Source: a virus (Duplodnaviria; Caudoviricetes). Taken from it: a DNA stretch of 64,000 nucleotides. The stretch covers positions 138,491 through 202,490 of IMG/VR virus record IMGVR_UViG_3300042090_001530, one strand, 5' to 3'. The notes under the pieces are model-generated. The model saw nothing but the letters and a program-made list of their open reading frames with translations, was not told the origin of the DNA and did no database searches. Below are positions 17,525 to 61,465 of this stretch, piece by piece (the first letter of the stretch is position 1; every line of letters begins with the position of its first letter). Both the position numbers and the translations under genes were made by a program.

Positions 17525-17546
17525 ATCGTGCCCTTCGCCACCGACG
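17525..17546 (-). promoter_or_regulatory. PafBC/RecA-NDp-like promoter (variant)
   Basis: Minus strand CGTCGG-TGGCGAAGGG-CACGAT, 8 nt upstream of the ATG at 17516. Confidence 0.4.
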
Positions 17547-24113: not shown

Positions 24114-24135
24114 ATCCTGCCGCAGACCACTGACA
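24114..24135 (-). promoter_or_regulatory. PafBC/RecA-NDp-like promoter
   Basis: Minus strand TGTCAG-TGGTCTGCGG-CAGGAT (TGTCRGTG, 8 nt, -10). Confidence 0.5.
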
Positions 24136-36883: not shown

Positions 36884-38599
36884 TCAGTTCGTCTTCGTGT
36901 TGGTCAGGTGCGGCCCGATATACCCGACGATCATCTTGCCGGTCAGGCCCTTCGTGTCGTCGAGGAAGTAGACGCGGGGGCTGATTGATCCTCTTCGCTC
37001 GATCTGCAGGTGCGCCTGCATGGTCGTGCTGCCGTCCGGATCCACGTCGCTGGGGACCGGGAAGACGCGTTCGTCGCCCCAGTGGGCCATGGTCGTGTCG
37101 GATTCGGACATCGCGACCTGCGTGAGCGGCCAGCCTGCGGCGGCGCGTCCGGATCTGCAGTACTGGTAAAAGCCCGCATGGTCTGCATGCGTGGCCGCGT
37201 ATCCGTCCAGTGCGCGCAGGCCCTGCCACGTTTTGGCCGCCCACACCCTGGAGCGTTCGTTTTCGTCGAGAGACAGGGCTATCTGCGCGTCGGCGGTCAG
37301 CAACACACCCGTAAGGCCCGCGGCGCGCTCGAGGAGTTCGGCGAACGAGCCTGGGGCTCCCGGCGTGTCGCTGACTGCCGCGGCGTCTGCGTGCCGCCCC
37401 TGGGCGTACAGGAGGCCGCGCAGCACCTCGGCTTCGCCGCGGCCCCGCTCCGCCTCCTCCAGTGCCCACAGAGCCTCTTCCGTGTCCGCGTCGGACTGTC
37501 CGGCGAGCATGGCGTTCTGCTGCTCGAGCGACGCGATGGCGCGTTGCGAGAGCATGTCGGCGCGGCCGGCCTCACGCAGGTCGTCGTCGGCTTGCTTGAG
37601 GAGCGCGGTGAGGTCGGAGACTTCCTGCTGGAGGGCTTGGGCATCGACTGTGCCGCGCACGAGGTTGATCGCGGCTTGGCGGGCTTCCCGGTGGGCTTCG
37701 CCGACCTCCGGGAACGTGACCGTGCGCAACGCGTCCGGGAGCGGGGCGGCGGTGGCGAGCCGGTGCAGCGTGTTCGGCAGGGACCGCCATGCCGCGTCCG
37801 CAGGGTCCGATAGTCGCGCGGCGGCGAGGAACCGGTGCCGGGCCGCGTCGGCTGGCCATGCCGGGTCCACGCCGGGATGGAACGTGCGGATCGAGCCGGT
37901 GGCGACCCGGTGGTCTTCGCCGATCTGCTGCCGGAACGCATGGATCGCATCCTGGTCGGCGAGCAGGTAGAGGGATGCGGCGCCAGCGCACAGCGGCATC
38001 GCGCGTTGCATACGGTCCGACCAGACCGGTTCCGGGCTGAACGGGCGCGCCGCCACCAGCGCGGGTTTACGCCGGTCCGGGTCGCAGAGGATTTCCACGA
38101 GATCGGCCACGTCGTACTGGCTGATCTCCTGGGTGCCGCGGGTGAGTTTCGCGGGCCCGTCTTTGGGCTGGAGCGCGGCGACGAGGGAGCGGATCAGGGC
38201 GGGCCAGCCGGGGGTGACGAGCGTGCCGGGGTTCGGGAACGCCTCGAGGCCGACGGCGACGTGCATGGCACCGTTGTCGGCGACTGCGGTGACGGTGGTG
38301 CGCCAGGTCGCGTCCGTGTTCTCTTCGCGCAACTGGAGCCGGATCGCTGCTTCGGCGCCGGCCGGGTTGTAGACGACCTGGTTGATGAGGGTCGCGGTGT
38401 CGGTCAGGGCGTGGTGGCCCGGGGCGAGTGGGGCCTGGTAGTTCTTGCCCGCGAGCCATTCGGCGGTGACCGAGCGCGTCTTGCTGAATGCGTCGGGGTT
38501 GCGGGTGGTGAACGTGGCGCGGTGCGCGAGCGGTCTGTCGGGGTCGCCCGTCGGGGTCGTCGGGGCTAGATCGGCAGGAAGGTGGCTAACCGCGGTCAT
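36884..38599 (-). CDS. Large hypothetical protein: coiled coil + putative RelE-like RNase C-terminal domain
   Basis: 571 aa; C-terminus AHLQI..RVYFLDDT..G.MIVGYIGPHL resembles RelE/ParE-fold toxins (inference). Confidence 0.7.
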   Translation of the reverse strand: MTAVSHLPADLAPTTPTGDPDRPLAHRATFTTRNPDAFSKTRSVTAEWLAGKNYQAPLAPGHHALTDTATLINQVVYNPAGAEAAIRLQLREENTDATWRTTVTAVADNGAMHVAVGLEAFPNPGTLVTPGWPALIRSLVAALQPKDGPAKLTRGTQEISQYDVADLVEILCDPDRRKPALVAARPFSPEPVWSDRMQRAMPLCAGAASLYLLADQDAIHAFRQQIGEDHRVATGSIRTFHPGVDPAWPADAARHRFLAAARLSDPADAAWRSLPNTLHRLATAAPLPDALRTVTFPEVGEAHREARQAAINLVRGTVDAQALQQEVSDLTALLKQADDDLREAGRADMLSQRAIASLEQQNAMLAGQSDADTEEALWALEEAERGRGEAEVLRGLLYAQGRHADAAAVSDTPGAPGSFAELLERAAGLTGVLLTADAQIALSLDENERSRVWAAKTWQGLRALDGYAATHADHAGFYQYCRSGRAAAGWPLTQVAMSESDTTMAHWGDERVFPVPSDVDPDGSTTMQAHLQIERRGSISPRVYFLDDTKGLTGKMIVGYIGPHLTNTKTN

Positions 38600-38836
38600 G
38601 GTTGTCGACTCTCGGCCGGTTCCGGCAGTGGTGAGATTGCGCGCATGGGGTCCTCCTGGCTGGGGGCTGGGTGGCACGGCTTGCGGGCCGCGTGACGCCC
38701 GATGTTCGGCTGATCTGCCGCTATACCCATTGTTGCGCAACGTGCTGACAATTTCAGGGCGACGGTGTCACTGCAGCGGTCGCCTGAGGCACGGGAAAAG
38801 CCGCTGCATCCAGCGGGTGGCCGACACGCGCTCGAG

Positions 38837-39062
38837 CGATGTGGCGTCGAGTCTGCCGTTCACGAAGACGGTGCCGCTCGATTCGAACGCCCAGTACTAC
38901 AACGTGACCGCGCAGTTGTCCGGTGCCGGCCAGGTGTCGTGCACGACCGTGGTGGACTGGGACGGGCAGTCGGTGACCCAGTCCGGGCAGGCATCGGGCG
39001 GCTACAATCTCGCGGCGGCCGAGGTGTGCTCGGACTTCTCCGGCGGCTGGCAGACCTGCTGA
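38837..39062 (+). pseudogene. Possible fragment of an exported Ig-like/MmpS-like protein
   Basis: LPFTKTVPL...QLSGAGQVSC...GGYNLAAAEVC without signal peptide or clear start. Confidence 0.3.
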
Positions 39063-39113
39063 GCTGTGCTGGCAGGGCGTCGTGGTCGCTACAGGCGGGT
39101 GCGGCGCCCCGCT

Positions 39114-39422
39114 TCACCGTCCCGGCCCGTCCGGTTCCGCCGGGTTGAGCGCGATCAGTGCGAGGCCGTCCAGGTCGACGGGAGCGCGTCGACTCTCGCC
39201 GGCCGTCTGGATCGCGAAGCGCTGTTCGGTGTCGGCGGCGTGGACGAGTACGGCACTGCCGTCGCCGACCGACGCGGCGATCACTGCCCACAGTTCGTCG
39301 CGGACCTTCGCGGACAGCGTCCCCACGTACAGGCCGGGCGTAGGTTCGAGCATCCAACGGCTCAGGGCGCCGCGGACGTGCGGCGCGACTGCGGTCGCGC
39401 TGATGACGGTCAGGTTGCTCAC
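39114..39422 (-). CDS. cas2: Type I-E CRISPR-associated endoribonuclease Cas2
   Basis: VRGALSRWMLEPTPGLYVGTLSAKVRDELW...TEQRF...PVDLDGLALI; GTGA overlap with cas1 stop. Confidence 0.93.
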   Translation of the reverse strand: MSNLTVISATAVAPHVRGALSRWMLEPTPGLYVGTLSAKVRDELWAVIAASVGDGSAVLVHAADTEQRFAIQTAGESRRAPVDLDGLALIALNPAEPDGPGR

Positions 39423-40420
39423 GGCCCGTCCTGCCCTCGGCCGTGGTTGGTGCCGCTCGGTACCGAACCGGCTTCCGGGTCCCAGAGTTCGAATGCGTTG
39501 GCCAGTTCGACATTGCCTGCGGGTTCGATCCCCGGTTCGAACAGGCGCTGGATGTCGCGGACGATGTTCGGCATGAGCCGGAACAGGGTCAGTCCGCGCC
39601 GGAACGCGCGCCTGGCGTCGCCTTCGGGGTCTTCGGATGCGTGCAGGGTGAACGCGAGCGGGATGGTGAGTTCGGCCTTGTACAGGTCGGCGATGTCGTA
39701 CACGAACGCGTGGCTGGTGCCGGCGTGTACGAATCCGAGGCCGGGGGAGCAGCCGAGCGCGGTGATCGCGGCGTGGACGATGCCGTACAGGCACTGGTTG
39801 GCTGCGGTCAGGGCGGCGTTGACGGGGTCTTGGCTTTCCCAGTCTTCGGGGTTGTAGGAGCGGCGGAACGCGTGCAGGCCGTGCTGTTTGGCGAGGCGCC
39901 TGTAGAGGGATTTCATCTGCCAGCCTTCCAGCCCGCGGAGCGTGCCCAGTTTGACGCCGTCGGGCAGTTGCCCTTCCGCAGTGGGGAACCGGTGGGCGTA
40001 CATGCGTTTGGCGACCGTGAGCCGCTTGGCGGGGTCGGCCCAGGCGGCTGCCTGCTTTTCGAGCCAGCGGCTCGACCGGCTGGACGGGGTGATCGCGGCG
40101 TAACAGCGGACGGTGCCCCAGCCGGTGAACACGATGGTGGTGCCGTGTCTGGCGAGGGTGGCGACTGCGGGGTTGGTGATGGAGGTTCCGGGGCCGAGGA
40201 GCAGGCAGCTGATGGCGGCGGTGGGGATGCGGAGGCGGCGTGTCGGGGCGCCGACGGCGGGGAATGCGAGGACGCCTGTGTCGTCTTGGGTGATGCGCAT
40301 GAGGTCGAGGAACAGGAACGAGAGGCTGTCGCCGACGCGTGGGAGCATGGCTGCGGTGGGTGCGGCGATGCGGCGTCGGGCTTGCTGGGTGTTGGGTTGG
40401 GGTTGGTTCTCTGGGTGCAT
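39419..40420 (-). CDS. cas1: Type I-E CRISPR-associated integrase Cas1
   Basis: LLLGPGTSIT, LRGLEG (catalytic E), GLGFVH (H), FVYDIADLYK (D); catalytic set intact. Confidence 0.95.
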   Translation of the reverse strand: MHPENQPQPNTQQARRRIAAPTAAMLPRVGDSLSFLFLDLMRITQDDTGVLAFPAVGAPTRRLRIPTAAISCLLLGPGTSITNPAVATLARHGTTIVFTGWGTVRCYAAITPSSRSSRWLEKQAAAWADPAKRLTVAKRMYAHRFPTAEGQLPDGVKLGTLRGLEGWQMKSLYRRLAKQHGLHAFRRSYNPEDWESQDPVNAALTAANQCLYGIVHAAITALGCSPGLGFVHAGTSHAFVYDIADLYKAELTIPLAFTLHASEDPEGDARRAFRRGLTLFRLMPNIVRDIQRLFEPGIEPAGNVELANAFELWDPEAGSVPSGTNHGRGQDGP

Positions 40421-40513
40421 CCGTTGTTGATAGCGCGGTTTCGCAGAGGGCTGAATGCTTGTCGCACGAACGAGTGACGTGTCGATGTTCGGCCGGTCCG
40501 GATGAGGATCTCC

Positions 40514-40970
40514 CGATCTTCCCGTGCGCTCGCGGGCCAGACCCTGGATGAAGAGGCGTCCGCGCGACCCCGACAGATCTTCCCGTGCGCTCGCGGGCCA
40601 GACCCGACGGCTCGTCATCGTCCGGCAGTGCCCTTAGATCTTCCCGTGCGCTCGCGGGCCAGACCGGAACTCGCGGCGGCCGGAGTGGTGGACGGCAGAT
40701 CTTCCCGTGCGCTCGCGGGCCAGACGCGTCATCCGGCAGATAAACTCGGCCCCGTTGAGATCTTCCCGTGCGCTCGCGGGCCAGACCTGATCGGGGTGCG
40801 ATCAGTCCTGCGCATTGCTAGATCTTCCCGTGCGCTCGCGGGCCAGACTGCCGCCGTCGCCGCGGAGACCGCTGCGGAGAAGATCTTCCCGTGCGCTCGC
40901 GGGCCAGACTCTCGGTCACCTGGTCGAGGTAGCCTTCGGCGAGATCTTCCCGTGCGCTCGCGGGCCAGAC
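40514..40970 (-). CRISPR. CRISPR array, 8 repeats / 7 spacers
   Basis: 29-nt repeat GTCTGGCCCGCGAGCGCACGGGAAGATCT (minus) at 40942, 40881, 40820, 40758, 40697, 40636, 40575, plus 40514 (terminal base variant, trailer). Spacers 32 nt (one 33 nt), i.e. I-E-like 61-bp period. Confidence 0.98.
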
Positions 40971-41005
40971 AGTTCGTGGCCAGCGCAAACACTCTTGAGT
41001 TTTAC
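40971..41005 (-). promoter_or_regulatory. Very short CRISPR leader
   Basis: 35 nt between TnpB-like stop codon and first repeat; ends GCGCTGGCCACGAACT, reminiscent of actinobacterial I-E leader ends (from memory). Confidence 0.5.
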
Positions 41006-42793
41006 TCACGAGTCAAGGGAAGCCGGGGGATCACTCCCCCGAGATGACCCGCCCCGTCGCCGAGACTGGCCTTCCTGCTTCGACAGCGGGGTCGAGAGCC
41101 GCCGGTCACCCGACGGACTTTGCCCACCTCCACAGGCGTTTAGACTCTCCCCGATATCCGAGGCGAGCGGTACCGCATGGTGCAGGATATTGCGCGCAGC
41201 ATTGACCTCGCGGTCAAGCTTCATACCGCACTTGATGTTCCCGCACCGGAAAACCACCTGCGTAAGCGGGATGCTTGGGTCTCGCCATCCACACTTGCAA
41301 CAGGTCTGACTCGACGGCAGGTCCCCGGCCGCAGCCCGGAACCGCGTACCCCACTGCGCCGCCTTGTACTCCAACTGGCGCCGCAACTCGGCAGGCGCCG
41401 TGTCCAGGATCGCCCGGTTGAAGCCGGCCTTCACCTTCACGTCGCTGCCGGGCGCCTCGACGGTGCCCTTCGCGGACCCGGTCATCTGCCGGACATTCAG
41501 GTCGCGGACAGCGATCTCCGGATAGTTGATCGCTATGCTCGCGGAGATCTGGTTCAGGGTGCCGCGCCGCGCCTCCGCAGTCCGATGATGCACGCGGCCG
41601 AGCCGCCTGACCGCCTTGGCACGGTTCGCCGACTGCGCCTGACCGCGCACGAACGGCTTACGCGCCACAGCCTGCGACGCCTTCACCAAAGCCCGCTTGT
41701 GCCTCTTGCCGTACCGAGGATTCTCATACGCAGTCTCGTCCGACAGGGCGACCAGGGTACGAACACCCCACTCGACGCCGACGGCCGGGCGCATCCGCTG
41801 CCGTTCCTTGGAGACCTTCTGCCGGGCCCGGGAGACCTCCTCGCGGTGCCGCATCGCCTCCGGGGACAGTTCGCACAGCACCGACGCGTACCAGCGGGAG
41901 CCGCCCCGGGAGATCGTCACCGACTTGACCACCGCGTGGCCCCGGTCGATCAGCCGCGCGAGGGGCTTGCAGGACTCGAACAGCCGGACCGAACCGATCC
42001 GCGGCACGTTCAGCCGGCGGTGTCCGTCGGGCCGGATCGACGGGTTGTGCACATCGTGGAACAGGGTGAACGAGTCGGTCGAGCGGCCCTTCTTCTTAAA
42101 CCGGGGCCTGCCCATCGCCCGGCCGACCCTGGCCCCGGTGCGCGACGCCATCCAGTTCTGCATCGCCGCCTGGGCGCGGTCGAAGCCGTTGGTGAAGCAG
42201 TACACGGAGACTTCGGGATGCCACGGGGAGCCGCCGTCTGCGGCGTCCTGGTCGCGGATTTCGCGCCACATGGTGGTGCAGTCCATCGCGGACGGGATCG
42301 CGTCGCCGCGCTCGAATCGGGCCTTCTTGAACTGCAGCACCTCGCGGCGCACGGCAGCGAGTCGCTCCTTGATCTCCAGCAGGTCGGGGCGCGTCTTGTC
42401 CTTGACTGCGGCCATCAGGGCTTTGCGCTCGTCGTCGAGCCGTTTGGTGTCGGCGGCCAACTCGGCGGCCTCGGCTTTGAGGATCGGCCGGGCCTGCTTG
42501 TCCCACTGCTTGATCCGCTCGCCGCGCACCTGGGCCGTCCACGCAGCGGTGGACTTCTCGTCCAGGCCGTCGGGCGGCTGCGGCATCGGCCCGGCGATCC
42601 GGGTGATGACCTCGTCGCGGCGCGCCTCCCAGGCGAGTTGGGCTTGGGACATCCATGCGATGCCGCGGTTGGTGGCCCACCGGGTGGCGCCAGCATGCCG
42701 GGCGAAGTCGGCGAGTTGGGCTTGGGTTGGGTCGAGGGCGAACCGATAGGCGCGCAGAACTGGCGCGGGCGCTTCGGTTTCAGCGGTGGCCAT
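41006..42793 (-). CDS. tnpB: RuvC-inactivated TnpB/Cas12-like RNA-guided protein, CRISPR-associated
   Basis: 595 aa; LRAYRFALDP N-terminus, PRFKKKG, Zn finger SQTCCKCG/CGNIKC. RuvC-I VGVEWG (D>E), RuvC-II IAVRDL (E>R), RuvC-III DREVNAARNI (D>E); ~110-aa helical insertion. Confidence 0.9.
   Translation of the reverse strand: MATAETEAPAPVLRAYRFALDPTQAQLADFARHAGATRWATNRGIAWMSQAQLAWEARRDEVITRIAGPMPQPPDGLDEKSTAAWTAQVRGERIKQWDKQARPILKAEAAELAADTKRLDDERKALMAAVKDKTRPDLLEIKERLAAVRREVLQFKKARFERGDAIPSAMDCTTMWREIRDQDAADGGSPWHPEVSVYCFTNGFDRAQAAMQNWMASRTGARVGRAMGRPRFKKKGRSTDSFTLFHDVHNPSIRPDGHRRLNVPRIGSVRLFESCKPLARLIDRGHAVVKSVTISRGGSRWYASVLCELSPEAMRHREEVSRARQKVSKERQRMRPAVGVEWGVRTLVALSDETAYENPRYGKRHKRALVKASQAVARKPFVRGQAQSANRAKAVRRLGRVHHRTAEARRGTLNQISASIAINYPEIAVRDLNVRQMTGSAKGTVEAPGSDVKVKAGFNRAILDTAPAELRRQLEYKAAQWGTRFRAAAGDLPSSQTCCKCGWRDPSIPLTQVVFRCGNIKCGMKLDREVNAARNILHHAVPLASDIGESLNACGGGQSPSGDRRLSTPLSKQEGQSRRRGGSSRGSDPPASLDS
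41012..41152 (-). ncRNA. TnpB omegaRNA-like scaffold overlapping the gene 3' end
   Basis: GGGGAGAGTCTAAACGCC...AAGCAGGAAG...GGGGGAGTGATCCCCCGGCTTCCC, the usual IS605-type 3' overlap encoding ESLNA...KQE; boundaries approximate. Confidence 0.55.
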
Positions 42794-42832
42794 GTTCTAC
42801 TCCTTCCCGGTTCGGCCCTGCAGGTGCGTCAG

Positions 42833-42854
42833 ATTTTAGCGGGTACGTCCGACA
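42833..42854 (-). promoter_or_regulatory. PafBC-type promoter of the TnpB-like/CRISPR unit
   Basis: Minus strand TGTCGG-ACGTACCCGC-TAAAAT = exact TGTCGG-N10-TANNNT; RBS GGAAGGAG downstream. Confidence 0.7.
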
Positions 42855-45062
42855 CTGGCGCGGCAGTCTCGCGAGCCCCTCGTGGCGGGTGGGCGCCGTC
42901 ACCACATCCGGCAAGCGCGCCAGAGCCCGACCGCCACAGCCTCCATGCGGTGCTCGATCAGCCATGCGGCGGTCGCGTCCACACCCCGCGTGGCGCGCAG
43001 CCGGACCCGGGTCCTCCACGGCAGTGGCGGGTGGCGTTTCCACTGGCCGTTCGGCTGCCGATAGAGGTAGGGCGCGGGCTGTCGGTCAGTCACCGTCGCG
43101 CACCCCATCCTTGCCGTTGAATCGCAGCGATTCGCGGATCTGGCGCTCGGGGAGCGGTTTGCCGCGTCCGTCCGTCCATGGCCGGCCCACGGGTCGATCG
43201 GCGTGCGTGTAGGCCCAGACTCTCGCATGGTCGCCCAGGTACCAGAGGGGTGTGCCGCGGCCGTCGGTGCGCACGGTGAAGCCTTCGCCGGCTTCGTAGG
43301 TGAACGATGCACCGGACGGTTCGGAAGCGTGGCTGGGGTCGATCAGGTCGGCGACAACTCTGAGGCATCTACCCGCGAACGCGAGGATCACGAGGCGCCC
43401 CACTCGGCCGCTGTCGCGACTTGGCCGGTCACCATCCTGGATGCCTTCCCATGTAGACGTCGTACCCCACGGCGCCCTCGACGGCCACGATCCCGGCCGC
43501 CGCTTCCTGTCCGGCCTGAACGTACCCGACGTAGTTCGGGTCGCTGATCGCGGCGGCCGTGGGCGGCACGCCGAACACGCTGCCGAAGCCGAGGTCGTCT
43601 TCGGGTTCCGTAGCGGCGGTCGCGTACTTGGACCGCGGCGAGCGGGGACGGTCCGGGTGTGGTGCCGCGCGGGTCACACGGTTCTCTCGGTCGCCCTTGT
43701 GCATCCGTTCCCGAAACTCGTGCAGGGCGATGCCGCCTTCGGGCCAGGTTGCGCCGGTCGCGAGCCAACCGTCGAGCTGCGCGAGCATGATGGACTGCGG
43801 GGTGGGTTCGCGGTCGAGCATTGGGGCTCCAGCGTTCCACCAGCGAACGCCCTCGTTGACCCGGTCGTGGGTCATCGGGAACTTGTCGGCGGTCAGGCCG
43901 AGTTCGGCGCGGTACGCCTCGAAAACGGCGAGCCGTTCCTTGCCGGGCCATTCGCCGGGGTAGGCGGGGAGCAGGCGGTCGGGGATGTCCATGTCACCCA
44001 TTCTCGCCGCCGCCTGCCGCGATCCGTTCGATCTCGAGCCGGTCACGCTCCAGCCGTTCCTCAAGTTGCTCCAGCGTGGACGGGGCGAACGTGTCGCAGC
44101 CGCACCGGCCGTAGCGCGTGCCGCCGGGCAACTCGCGGGCGACGCTGACCGCGCACGGACCGCGCTCATGGGAGGCGTAGTGGTGGCGGCAGTTCTCGCA
44201 CCCGACCGGCAGGAACATCGCGCAGTCGGCGCACACGAACCCGCCGACGGTGAACCGGACGTACGGGGCCTTCGGCTCGCCGCAGGTGCACTCGCAGCAT
44301 GAGCGACAGCGCTCGCAGAGTTCCGCTTCGCCGCCGGGATGCCACCAGTTGCTTCCGCCGTGGCAGTCGCGGCAATCCGGGTGCCCGGTCCTGTGGGCCG
44401 GCGGCCCGCAGGCAGCGCTGGCCGTGTCGAGTGGCGGCGGGGCGTTGCGCTGCGAGTACGGCACGATCGGCAGGTCGGGGCGCATCGCGGACAGTACCGC
44501 GTCGATCGGCCCGTTGGTGAACCCGAGTTGATCGGTGGTGATCGCGGTGAACGTGGCTCCGCAGCCGGGTTGCCCGTGGCTGTCGCCGTGCCCGGAGATC
44601 GTCTCATGTGCGGTTTGTCCGCGGACGAGGGTGCCGCGGCCGCAGTGCGAGCACTTCGATGTATAGCTACTGACGATTATGGTCGCGGTCGCGCCTGGCG
44701 TGGACGGCTCGTCGCGGTATGCGTTGTACGAAGTCTCGCTCACTGCTCGCCACCGCCCACGCCGGCCCGCCCGGCTAGGAACTGCTCGACCCACTGCGCG
44801 TTCGCCTCGCGCGAGTCGTCATACTCGATCCACCGGTCGCTGGCACTGATCTCGCTGGCCGTGATGACGCCTTCCCGGAAGCACTCGTCCCATTCGTCGC
44901 TCAGCCGGTCCCTCACGCGCGGGTCGGTCGCCCGGTCCCGCTCGGCCATGATCAGAGGGCAGTTGCGGAAGAACGTGCCGTCCGACTGCTTGCGATACCA
45001 GGTACGGGGCGCGGGTCCGCTTTCGGTCCGGCGGTGGCGGGTTCGACCCCAGCGGATGCCGG

Positions 45063-51545: not shown

Positions 51546-51872
51546 CGAGTCGCCGCCTCTGCGCTTCGGCGGACACTGTCGGGGTGGGCTGCTACCTTCA
51601 AGACAGGTGTGCTCCTTCGAGAGGGAGTCGGTCTGCGAGCTCGCAACTCGCTGATCATCGTTCGGCCCGGTCTTCGGACCGGGCCGGTCGTTTTTGCGCA
51701 ATGGTCTAACGTCTGATCATCGGACCCCATTGTCTCGCTTCCGAAGGTCAGCCGACGCGCGTTCGGGCACGCTAGGGCGAGCGAAAATCCGGCACGGATC
51801 GACGCACGCGCCTGACTTCGATCACGACCTCCGGGTACGGTGGATGGAGAGCCATCCATGGAGGGAACGCTC

Positions 51873-59683: not shown

Positions 59684-59945
59684 GTCAACGACCCAGTCCT
59701 GAAGGACTGGGCTTGAGGTCCAACTGGAGTTCAAGCCCGTGTTGACCAGCCCTAGTCGATCATTTCAAGGAGGTGCATTCGATTGACTACGTTTCACGTG
59801 AGCGTGCAGACCCACCAGGCCGTGCTTCCTCAGCGGCCTGCTCTGGAATCCGTGGGAGCAGACAATCCGGGTCGGAACGAAACGGCCCACGGACACCCCG
59901 CCGACGTGCGGGGCACTGGCGTGGAACATGGGCGAGGGGAGACTC
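59684..59945 (+). ncRNA. IscB omegaRNA (HEARO-like) scaffold
   Basis: GTCAAC...GTTGACCAGCC, CTACGTT, TGCTTCCTCAGC...CTCTG, AACATGGGCGAGGGGAGAC landmarks; 3' boundary approximate. Confidence 0.8.
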
Positions 59946-61461
59946 CCGGCTGCGGCACCCGCGGCCAGGAGCGTCACGCTGATCCCGCTTCGGCGGGAGA
60001 GGTAGAGACCGCTGCCGGTGACGGCAGCACATCATATGCCGGGGCTGCGATGGTCGCGGTCCTGGATCGTCACGGGCGCCCGCTGATGCCGTGTCATCCG
60101 GCCCGCGCCCGCGAACTGCTCGCGAAGGGCCGGGCCGTGGTCGCCCGCCACACCCCGTTCGTGATCCGTCTGAAAGACCGCGACCTCGCGGATAGCGAAG
60201 TCGCTGGCGTCACGCTGCGCATCGACCCCGGGTCGAAAGGCACCGGGATCGCCACCACCACCGACGTCCAGCGGATCGACACCGCGACCGGCGAACTGAC
60301 CGCTGCCCGCAAGGGCCTGCTAGCGATCCAGCTCGACCATCGGGGCGCGCAGATCAAGGCGAAGCTTGAGCAGCGCTCGAACTGCCGGCGCCGTCGTCGC
60401 TCGGCGAATCTGCGCTACCGCGCGCCGAGGTTCCTGAACCGTACGAAGCCCGCTGGCTGGCTTGCCCCGTCGCTTCAGCATCGCGTGGACGCGACCACGT
60501 CGTGGGCCGGGCGGCTCTCGCGCTGGTTTCCGGTCGCGGGGATCGAGTTCGAGCGCGTCTCGTTCGACGTGTCGGCGATGGGCGTCGGCGTCGACCTGGC
60601 GGGTGTCGAGTATCAGCGGGGCACCCTGTTCGGGTATGAGGTGCGGCAGTTCCTGCTGGAGAAGTGGGGCCGATCCTGTGTCTACTGCGCGGCCGAGGGC
60701 GTGCCGTTGCAGGTCGAGCACATCCGGCCCAAGGCGCGCGGCGGCTCGGACCGGATCTCGAACCTGACGCTCGCGTGTGAGAAGTGCAACCAGGCCAAGG
60801 GTGCGCGGCCAGTAGAAGAGTTCCTTGCCGGCCGGCCCACGCTGCTCGCGAAGATCCTGCGGCAGGCGAAGGCTCCGTTGCGGGACGCCGCCGCGATGAA
60901 CGCGACACGTTGGGCGCTGTGGCGGGAGCTGAGGGCGACGGGCCTGCCGGTGCGCGCCTGGTCCGGCGGTCGGACGAAGTTCAACCGGCACACCCAGGGC
61001 GTGGCGAAGTCGCACACCCTCGACGCGCTGTGCGTCGGCGAGCTCGGGCCCGGCGTCCGCATCGTGCGACACCCCGCCGTGGTCCTGACCGCGAAGGCGA
61101 CCGGGCGCGGCCGGTATCGGCGCACCGACCCGGACGCGTACGGATTCCCGCGCAAGACGAACCCCAGGGTCAAGCAGCACTTCGGGTTCGCGACCGGCGA
61201 CATGGTCCGCGCCGTCGTGCCGAGCGGCAAGAAGCAAGGAACTCACGTCGGCCGCGTCGCAGTGCGCGCCATAGGCAACTTCAACATCACCACCATGCAT
61301 GGAACCGTGCAGGGCATTCACCACCGTCACGTCCGGCTGCTCCAGCGCGCCGACGGATACGGATACACCACCAGCAGAGAGGTCGCACCGCCGATGTACA
61401 CGCACAACCCGGAGGGCTTCCTCCCCGCCCTGAAGGACGGGGCTTCCGCCCCGGATTTCAG
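59684..61461 (+). mobile_element. IS200/IS605-family IscB element, non-autonomous (no tnpA)
   Basis: Left end GTCAAC + hairpin CCCAGTCC-TGAA-GGACTGGG; right-end hairpin CCCCGCCC-TGAA-GGACGGGG; contains omegaRNA and iscB. Confidence 0.85.
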
Positions 61462-61465
61462 GTGA
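60050..61465 (+). CDS. iscB: RNA-guided endonuclease IscB
   Basis: PLMPCHPARARELL, RuvC-I IDPGSK, Arg-rich bridge helix, RuvC-II FER, HNH CVYC...EHIRP...CEKCNQAKG, RuvC-III SHTLDA; all catalytic residues present. Confidence 0.93.
   Translation: MVAVLDRHGRPLMPCHPARARELLAKGRAVVARHTPFVIRLKDRDLADSEVAGVTLRIDPGSKGTGIATTTDVQRIDTATGELTAARKGLLAIQLDHRGAQIKAKLEQRSNCRRRRRSANLRYRAPRFLNRTKPAGWLAPSLQHRVDATTSWAGRLSRWFPVAGIEFERVSFDVSAMGVGVDLAGVEYQRGTLFGYEVRQFLLEKWGRSCVYCAAEGVPLQVEHIRPKARGGSDRISNLTLACEKCNQAKGARPVEEFLAGRPTLLAKILRQAKAPLRDAAAMNATRWALWRELRATGLPVRAWSGGRTKFNRHTQGVAKSHTLDALCVGELGPGVRIVRHPAVVLTAKATGRGRYRRTDPDAYGFPRKTNPRVKQHFGFATGDMVRAVVPSGKKQGTHVGRVAVRAIGNFNITTMHGTVQGIHHRHVRLLQRADGYGYTTSREVAPPMYTHNPEGFLPALKDGASAPDFR

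Follow-up and report, generated by a model that had tools for sequence, protein, structure and literature searches.

The DNA analysed here (the window, 64,000 nt) covers positions 138491-202490 of a virus record of 202,490 bp with 68.6% G+C, rated 98% complete by CheckV, and its source is a 202-kb phage of high-GC bacteria. Its minus strand carries, one behind the other, the gene of a Cas12n/TnpB-like effector, a CRISPR array, cas1 and cas2 (Table 1). The genes of this phage mostly abut or overlap, and amid this tight packing a gap of 105 nt, bounded by a 64-codon ORF (stop at 42899) and the effector ATG at 42793, precedes the unit. Within this gap lies a match to the pattern TGTCGG-N10-TANNNT, which is the subject of this analysis.

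Table 1. Features of the operon, of the gap in front of it and of other motif sites in the window, together with the placement of the motif at homologous loci (positions in the window, or distance to the gene).
Feature	Position	Strand	Remark
Variant CGTCGGTGG...CACGAT	17525..17546	-	8 nt before ATG of 191-aa ORF, leaderless-type spacing; putative
Variant TGTCAGTGG...CAGGAT (extended form)	24114..24135	-	41 nt before 107-aa ORF; best of the three variants, putative
Variant TGTCAG...AACAAT	38729..38750	-	After cas2; ~130 nt before likely ATG of 618-aa ORF; weak
cas2 (Cas2 CT1978 / I-E type)	39114..39428	-	Pfam, E 5e-31
cas1	39419..40420	-	Pfam Cas1; ATG 40420 probable start, longer ORF extends into array
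CRISPR array, 8 repeats, 61-nt period	40510..40973	-	Begins ~35 nt past effector stop
Cas12n/TnpB-like effector gene, 595 aa	41006..42793	-	Pfam, NCBIfam; PDB 9J09 at E 1e-60; clade alignment
Shine-Dalgarno GGGAAGGAG	42800..42808	-	6 nt 5' of ATG
Predicted transcription start	42825..42827	-	From promoter geometry, 6-8 nt past -10; leader ~33 nt
-10 hexamer TAAAAT	42833..42838	-	Sole TANNNT of the 105-nt gap
10-nt spacer ACGTACCCGC	42839..42848	-	7/10 identical to recA spacer of two sampled actinobacterial genomes
-26 element TGTCGG (PafBC-type upstream element)	42849..42854	-	GTC core 42853-42851; consensus from PMC8635444
Second exact TGTCGG-N10-TANNNT	51577..51598	+	Probably intergenic; structured ~90 nt, then strong terminator 51662-51697
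L006, Streptomyces MAG	40 nt before ATG	sense	
L003/L007, Actinomycetota MAG	7 nt before ATG	sense	Active Cas12n-like gene
L018	50 nt upstream	sense	
L023, L025, L028, L037, Streptomyces/Kitasatospora plasmids	34-44 nt	sense	
L026, Streptomyces/Kitasatospora plasmid group	Directly upstream	sense	
L024, L027, L029, Mycobacterium plasmids	7-8 nt before ATG	sense	Leaderless-mRNA spacing
L034, Corynebacterium maris	57 nt	sense	
L032	7 nt before small co-oriented gene	sense	Small gene just upstream of tnpB
L036		sense	Promoter and N-terminal piece kept; gene split by IS481 copy

The effector contains OrfB_IS605, Cas12f1-like TNB and HTH_OrfB domains and is matched by the TnpB family models. Its best solved relative is the protein of PDB 9J09, which we take to be a type V-N Cas12n. 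At the RuvC acidic positions the effector reads GVEWG, AVRDL and DREVN, as against GVDLG, A(I/V)EDL and DRDxN in active relatives. All three residues of the triad are thus replaced (D to E, E to R and D to E), both in the alignment with 9J09 and in that with 19 relatives. These substitutions are common to a clade of metagenomic proteins (P0001-P0025), of which P0002-P0019 are 57-95% identical to the effector by protein comparison, with P0002-P0006 at 82-95%. With respect to Cas12n, the relationship and the adjacent array were both found, and the RuvC D-E-D triad is not intact. The description of this region in the earlier note as a dead-TnpB/CRISPR unit is therefore accurate, since three RuvC residues are replaced and the 8-repeat array, Cas1 and Cas2 follow on the same strand. 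A terminator scan of 38500-43500 detected no minus-strand terminator-like site between the promoter and cas2; effector, array, cas1 and cas2 are presumably co-transcribed as a whole unit.

Read on the minus strand from 42854 to 42833, the site found by the pattern scan of the window is TGTCGGACGTACCCGCTAAAAT. The ChIP-seq consensus published for PafBC promoters is tGTCgg(N10)tA(N3)T (Mueller et al. 2021, PMC8635444), and the phage site agrees with it at all specified positions, including the 10-nt spacing, as had been claimed from the sequence. In promoters of this type the upstream part of the motif, at -28 to -23, is the '-26 element', a -35 element is missing, and PafB reads the GTC triplet, which is near-invariant across actinobacteria (PMC8635444). 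PafBC is activated by single-stranded DNA (Schilling et al. 2025, PMC11804915). The general premises of the earlier note, that TGTCGG-N10-TANNNT is the PafBC motif and that PafBC responds to ssDNA, are thus both in agreement with the literature.

The motif is in sense orientation, with 39 nt from the end of the -10 to the effector ATG. It lies upstream of the ribosome-binding site of the TnpB-like gene, where it had been placed, the Shine-Dalgarno sequence (42808-42800) and the ATG at 42793 being on the same minus strand. A consensus scan detected no sigma-70 type -35/-10 promoter in 38500-43500, and the would-be -35 at 17-nt spacing from the TAAAAT hexamer is GCGCCA, with 3/6 matches. The -10 itself is unlike the TAC/G-GT form usual at the other sites collected here, which counts against control by PafBC.

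No terminator was found between the upstream minus-strand genes and the motif, and for this reason read-through from these genes could reach the unit. If the unit were transcribed in this way, the gap would hold no working promoter and the match would be due to chance, as is clearly true of the exact match that lies inside a gene, one of three in the record. Such an origin agrees poorly with the presence of a 105-nt gap in a phage of tightly packed genes, with a perfect -10 that is sensibly spaced to an SD-led start, and with the comparative evidence from homologs described below, and we regard it as highly improbable.

Within the window, two matches to TGTCGG-N10-TANNNT were observed against 0.20 expected, and at least two were obtained in 1/100 shuffles. 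In the whole 202-kb record the pattern is matched exactly three times, in one case antisense within a gene. TANNNT hexamers are scarce in this DNA (only 341 in the record, both strands), and a given -10 has TGTCGG at one fixed spacing with a probability of 3.4e-4. Counted over the record, TGTC stands 5 times at the PafBC offset from TANNNT against a mean of about 1.2, and this offset was the most frequent of the 36 examined. When position 5 or 6 was relaxed, five matches were obtained in the record, three of them between ORF calls (P = 0.04); counting 51577-51598 as intergenic, 4/5 are intergenic, while the intergenic fraction is 0.17 (P = 0.004). The within-phage statistics alone are suggestive, not compelling. 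The motif is not a general promoter class of this phage, a possibility rejected in view of the three exact matches and the little enrichment in the record. Two further relaxed matches are located outside the window, at 128200-128221 (plus strand) and 126573-126594 (minus strand) of the record; the upstream elements are TGTCAC and TGTCGC, each followed by a TANNNT -10. Both sites are between ORFs, and one of them is 99 nt before a 274-aa ORF.

The second exact match in the window, at 51577-51598, is divergent from an HTH/replication-initiator-like gene on the minus strand and lies 32 nt outside the probable GTG start (51545) of this gene. About 65 nt past its -10 there is a terminator with an 11-bp stem and a T-run. 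The implied RNA of about 90 nt (51605-51697, plus strand) contains three hairpins (z = -3.5), and no Rfam family above threshold was found near the site. The stretch following this motif is thus a candidate small RNA, which might be controlled in the same way.

Three variants of the motif had also been pointed out. All are present at 24114-24135, 17525-17546 and 38729-38750, on the minus strand and between ORF calls, but in all three the first base of the -10 is not T, and none is individually distinguishable from chance. For the relaxed pattern NGTCRG-N10-NANNNT, 46 matches were found in the record, five of which are well placed, where chance would give 1.4 (P = 0.012). The variant at 38729-38750 had been assigned to a RelE-like gene; this label was not reproduced, and the site faces a 618-aa ORF at which no RelE-like family was found.

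For the comparative analysis, TnpB/Cas12n-like loci of 37-50% identity, with an intact RuvC triad in all that were checked, were collected from metagenome and genome scans, from genome sampling and from a plasmid collection, the last being far richer in such loci than family- or class-level genome sampling with the effector protein. Absence of the motif in homologs had been named as an outcome that would refute the earlier reading, and this outcome was not obtained. In the same geometry, the motif was detected ahead of 14 genes in a set of about 30 homologs, while the background rate predicts 0.05-0.09 (P below 1e-25). The motif-bearing homologs are on plasmids of Streptomyces, Kitasatospora, Mycobacterium and Corynebacterium and in MAGs (Table 1). 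About half of the homologs are without the motif, which counts against the involvement of PafBC; the motif-free loci are L001, L002/L005, L010/L022, L011/L014, L012, L013, L016, L019, L021, L030, L033 and L035, and the IS607 elements with tnpA, L015 and L038, are likewise motif-free. The status of L017, L020 and L031 is ambiguous.

The motif-bearing loci fall into two classes. The leaderless class (L003, L024, L027, L029 and L032) has 7-8 nt between the end of the -10 and the ATG. In the leadered class this distance to the start is 34-57 nt, and a Shine-Dalgarno sequence is mostly evident. When 18 sites were aligned in register, the flanks and most of the spacer carried about 0 bits; the conservation of the hexamers in this set is by construction, since they were fixed by the search pattern. 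Six leadered loci aligned with MAFFT have only TGTC.G, TA...T and the Shine-Dalgarno sequence in common. Conservation restricted to these elements, together with two discrete distance classes, is as expected from selection on a promoter, and neither residual sequence homology nor a transposon end would leave such a pattern. A transposon end is in addition ruled out because the motif also precedes recA and unrelated neighbour genes, with only the two hexamers conserved.

The sole DNA of the dead clade that was examined, L001 (= L004, a 108-kb IMG/VR contig; effector identity 46%), is motif-free before the start, which counts against the reading as a PafBC promoter. The motif is present at 14 of about 30 active homologs with diverged flanks and absent in one dead-clade relative. 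The long array of this relative shares the 61-nt period of the phage array, and its effector has an extra domain at the N-terminus. It was the only dead-clade locus found in the metagenome and genome scans, which otherwise gave active relatives. When viral contigs were scanned, the protein, the alignment of the clade and the CRISPR repeat yielded L004 or nothing, and DNA searches gave no phage match, only distant plasmid TnpB matches.

Many actinobacterial promoters have no recognisable -35. With a strong -10 standing alone in the gap, the site could accordingly be a constitutive '-10 only' SigA promoter, in which TGTCGG would be a coincidence or the fossil of an ancestral TnpB promoter, irrelevant in the host of the phage. 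The low enrichment of the motif across the phage and the motif-free dead-clade relative L001 are in line with this possibility. It would require, on the other hand, that TGTCGG stands at the exact spacing by chance (3.4e-4), and it does not account for the same hexamer and spacing at 14 homolog loci with diverged flanks; moreover, RNAP-SigA alone does not use promoters of this type (PMC8635444). We therefore consider a constitutive promoter unlikely and favour the interpretation as a PafBC-type promoter.

As a control, recA was located with the Pfam model in five actinobacterial genomes reached via the homolog loci. In 5/5 of these genomes recA was preceded by exactly one TGTCRG-N10-TA(G/C)CGT site, ending about 55-90 nt before the start, and the motif is therefore in use in the likely host range. 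All close homologs of the effector are actinobacterial; based on these affinities, the presence of PafBC in the host is assumed. A search with the phage helicase gave no cultured close relative. The 98%-complete record encodes no WYL-domain protein, and any dependence on PafBC therefore needs a host factor.

The motif might also be read by another factor with a similar site, either a host regulator of the WYL or ClgR type or an unrecognised phage protein. ClgR is cited in PMC5656591 as once reported on the same promoter motif, further WYL activators exist in mycobacteria (PMC10693628), and most phage genes near the unit are without family assignment. A phage-encoded reader of the WYL type is disfavoured by the absence of such a protein from the record, and PafBC is the factor tied to this motif by ChIP-seq, cryo-EM and in vitro transcription (PMC8635444, PMC11804915), an identical motif being present at the recA promoters of the sampled actinobacteria. 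Another factor is, in our estimate, quite unlikely, and PafBC is retained as the candidate activator.

The phage site can be compared with several known systems. With the PafBC promoters (RecA-NDp or recA P1-type), which operate by 'sigma adaptation', it shares the identical 22-nt layout and the lack of a -35. Elsewhere these promoters precede repair genes, whereas in the phage the predicted promoter precedes a CRISPR-Cas operon, and its -10 is TAAAAT instead of TAC/G-GT.

A precedent for the association with TnpB-family genes is found in M. tuberculosis. In the supplement of Brzostek et al. (2021, PMC8151990), six IS607-family resolvase/transposase pairs (Rv0605/06, Rv0921/22, Rv2791c/92c, Rv2885c/86c, Rv2978c/79c and Rv3827c/28c) are tabulated with motifs, and among the rows listed these genes are marked 'PafBC_candidate', with Rv2791c bearing no mark. 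The motifs in these rows are of the form TGTCRGTGG-N7-TAGGAA and adjoin the IS607-family genes, two of them at 8 nt before the resolvase start. The main text of that paper reports that mitomycin C induces nine transposases and a resolvase when recA is mutated. The published table, as far as these rows go, thus lends support to a PafBC link of TnpB-family genes by marking IS607-family tnpA/tnpB pairs as candidates. In these elements (Rv0921/22 = IS1535), as for the phage effector, a TnpB-family gene stands behind a PafBC-type motif. The motif is located 8 nt before tnpA in leaderless arrangement, as in the mycobacterial plasmid tnpB genes collected here. In contrast to these transposons, which carry a serine recombinase and an intact nuclease, the phage unit is RuvC-dead, has an array with cas1 and cas2, lacks tnpA, and possesses a predicted leader with a Shine-Dalgarno sequence. 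In the literature searched, no paper was found that joins PafBC with TnpB or RecA-NDp with a transposase.

With type V-N Cas12n the phage effector has in common its compact, TnpB-like build and the adjacent array, and 9J09 was its best match in the structural database (E 1e-60). The active relative L003, which has a mini-array, also has a PafBC-type promoter. The phage effector differs from type V-N Cas12n in that all RuvC residues are replaced, in its own cas1-cas2, and in being phage-borne. At L003/L007 (5582-5742) the 540-aa active Cas12n-like gene is directly followed by three repeats, each 26 nt long and spaced at 66-69 nt, which end like the array repeats of the dead clade; the PafBC-type promoter at this locus is leaderless. 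A third comparison is with defence systems under WYL control, namely BrxR, CapW and the DNA-damage/anti-phage activator of Moraxellaceae (PMC9122601, PMC9122588, PMC12392091), in which immunity genes are likewise tied to a WYL-type sensor of nucleic acid or DNA damage. These regulators are mostly encoded beside their system and are often repressors, whereas the phage has no WYL gene and would borrow an activator from the host.

Taken together, the site very probably represents a genuine PafBC-class promoter. We estimate a probability of about 0.6 that a PafBC-class promoter (the 'RecA-NDp' or recA-P1 type) drives the dCas12n-CRISPR array-cas1-cas2 operon. The wiring of this dead-Cas12n CRISPR operon to the ssDNA/damage response of the host is the best-supported reading, and we hold it to be somewhat better than an even bet. 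Given the exact PafBC-type copy and the same promoter at many related TnpB genes, expression of the phage operon is probably induced by DNA damage or DNA replication stress.

The sequence of the site, its placement, the lack of a -35 and the reappearance of the motif both in homologs and before recA are direct observations, and from them we infer the transcription start, the binding of PafBC and the inducibility in the following model. Since there is no -35, the housekeeping RNA polymerase of the host alone would be unable to use the site. The WYL-domain activator PafBC of the host, once bound to ssDNA, would occupy TGTCGG at -28 to -23 and bridge to sigma region 4 ('sigma adaptation'), and transcription would begin about 7 nt past TAAAAT. 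The operon would be quiet in the undisturbed cell and would rise with ssDNA, as produced by DNA damage, prophage induction, the replication of the phage itself or that of an incoming element. Firing of the promoter on infection or conjugation by a competitor, as put forward in the earlier note, is speculation.

The record is that of a virus with a tyrosine recombinase and not an evident conjugative element. The recombinase is a 478-aa ORF of the phage integrase family (L044), located outside the window at 66503-67891 of the record on the minus strand, and its presence suggests that the 202-kb phage may be temperate; if so, a damage-gated promoter would have an obvious use. No tRNA was detected in the window, and no match to ParB or to an HK97-type capsid in the record. 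The window also contains, at 59783-61465 on the plus strand, a 560-aa ORF with RRXRR (E 8e-61) and HNH domains. As this pair of domains is that of IscB-type proteins, the phage may carry a second relative of the RNA-guided nucleases.

Because the promoter type is widespread in actinobacterial TnpB/Cas12n-like genes, the phage system most likely brought its PafBC-class promoter from a TnpB-like ancestor or retained it under the same selection. A wider proposal, to which we assign even odds, is that the phage has a PafBC-gated, nuclease-dead, adaptive Cas12n serving as a programmable repressor only upon damage, induction or superinfection, and that the PafBC coupling is old and widespread in the actinobacterial lineage leading from TnpB to Cas12n, represented here by the plasmid TnpBs, the Cas12n-like gene with the mini-array, the IS607 elements of M. 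tuberculosis and the phage system. If this is true, the appearance of ssDNA is the normal occasion for expression of the RNA-guided proteins of the lineage. TnpB-type proteins are believed to work during transposon excision or replication; an ssDNA-gated promoter would fit this timing and would tie the biology of TnpB to a defined actinobacterial signal. If the phage promoter works as proposed, it tells when a phage-borne, non-cutting CRISPR system is used, the signal for use being the ssDNA of damage, of induction or of the replication of a rival, and it narrows the search for the function of this system. The promoter type itself is already known, and its link with the TnpB family is visible in the published M. 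tuberculosis tables. New are the PafBC-type promoter before a phage-borne, adaptive, nuclease-dead type V system, and the breadth of its occurrence at plasmid TnpB genes of Streptomyces, Kitasatospora, Corynebacterium and Mycobacterium.

Several further observations were made at the homologous loci. PafBC-type motifs are also located before neighbour genes other than tnpB (L023:3455; L024:387 and L027:976, both minus strand; L006:181; L032:717), including a PHD antitoxin gene; several are at leaderless spacing, and promoters of this type are unusually frequent in these plasmid regions. In L036 (NZ_CP109189, 97-2741) an IS481-family insertion splits TnpB, with the PafBC-type promoter and an N-terminal HTH fragment remaining upstream of the insertion. 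An identical PafBC-type match is present at L002:4133 and L005:4130 (minus strand), a metagenome contig and Saccharopolyspora rectivirgula, antisense in the 5' end of the tnpB-like gene. At L026 (NZ_CP108614, OG379_RS01435) and L029 (NZ_CP085195, LIT21_RS24910) the annotated TnpB starts overlap or precede the motif, and the true starts are downstream. Several TnpB start codons in RefSeq thus appear to be wrong, because the promoter is inside or after the annotated start. For L029 the start is the ATG 7 nt past the -10, from which a leaderless mRNA would result.
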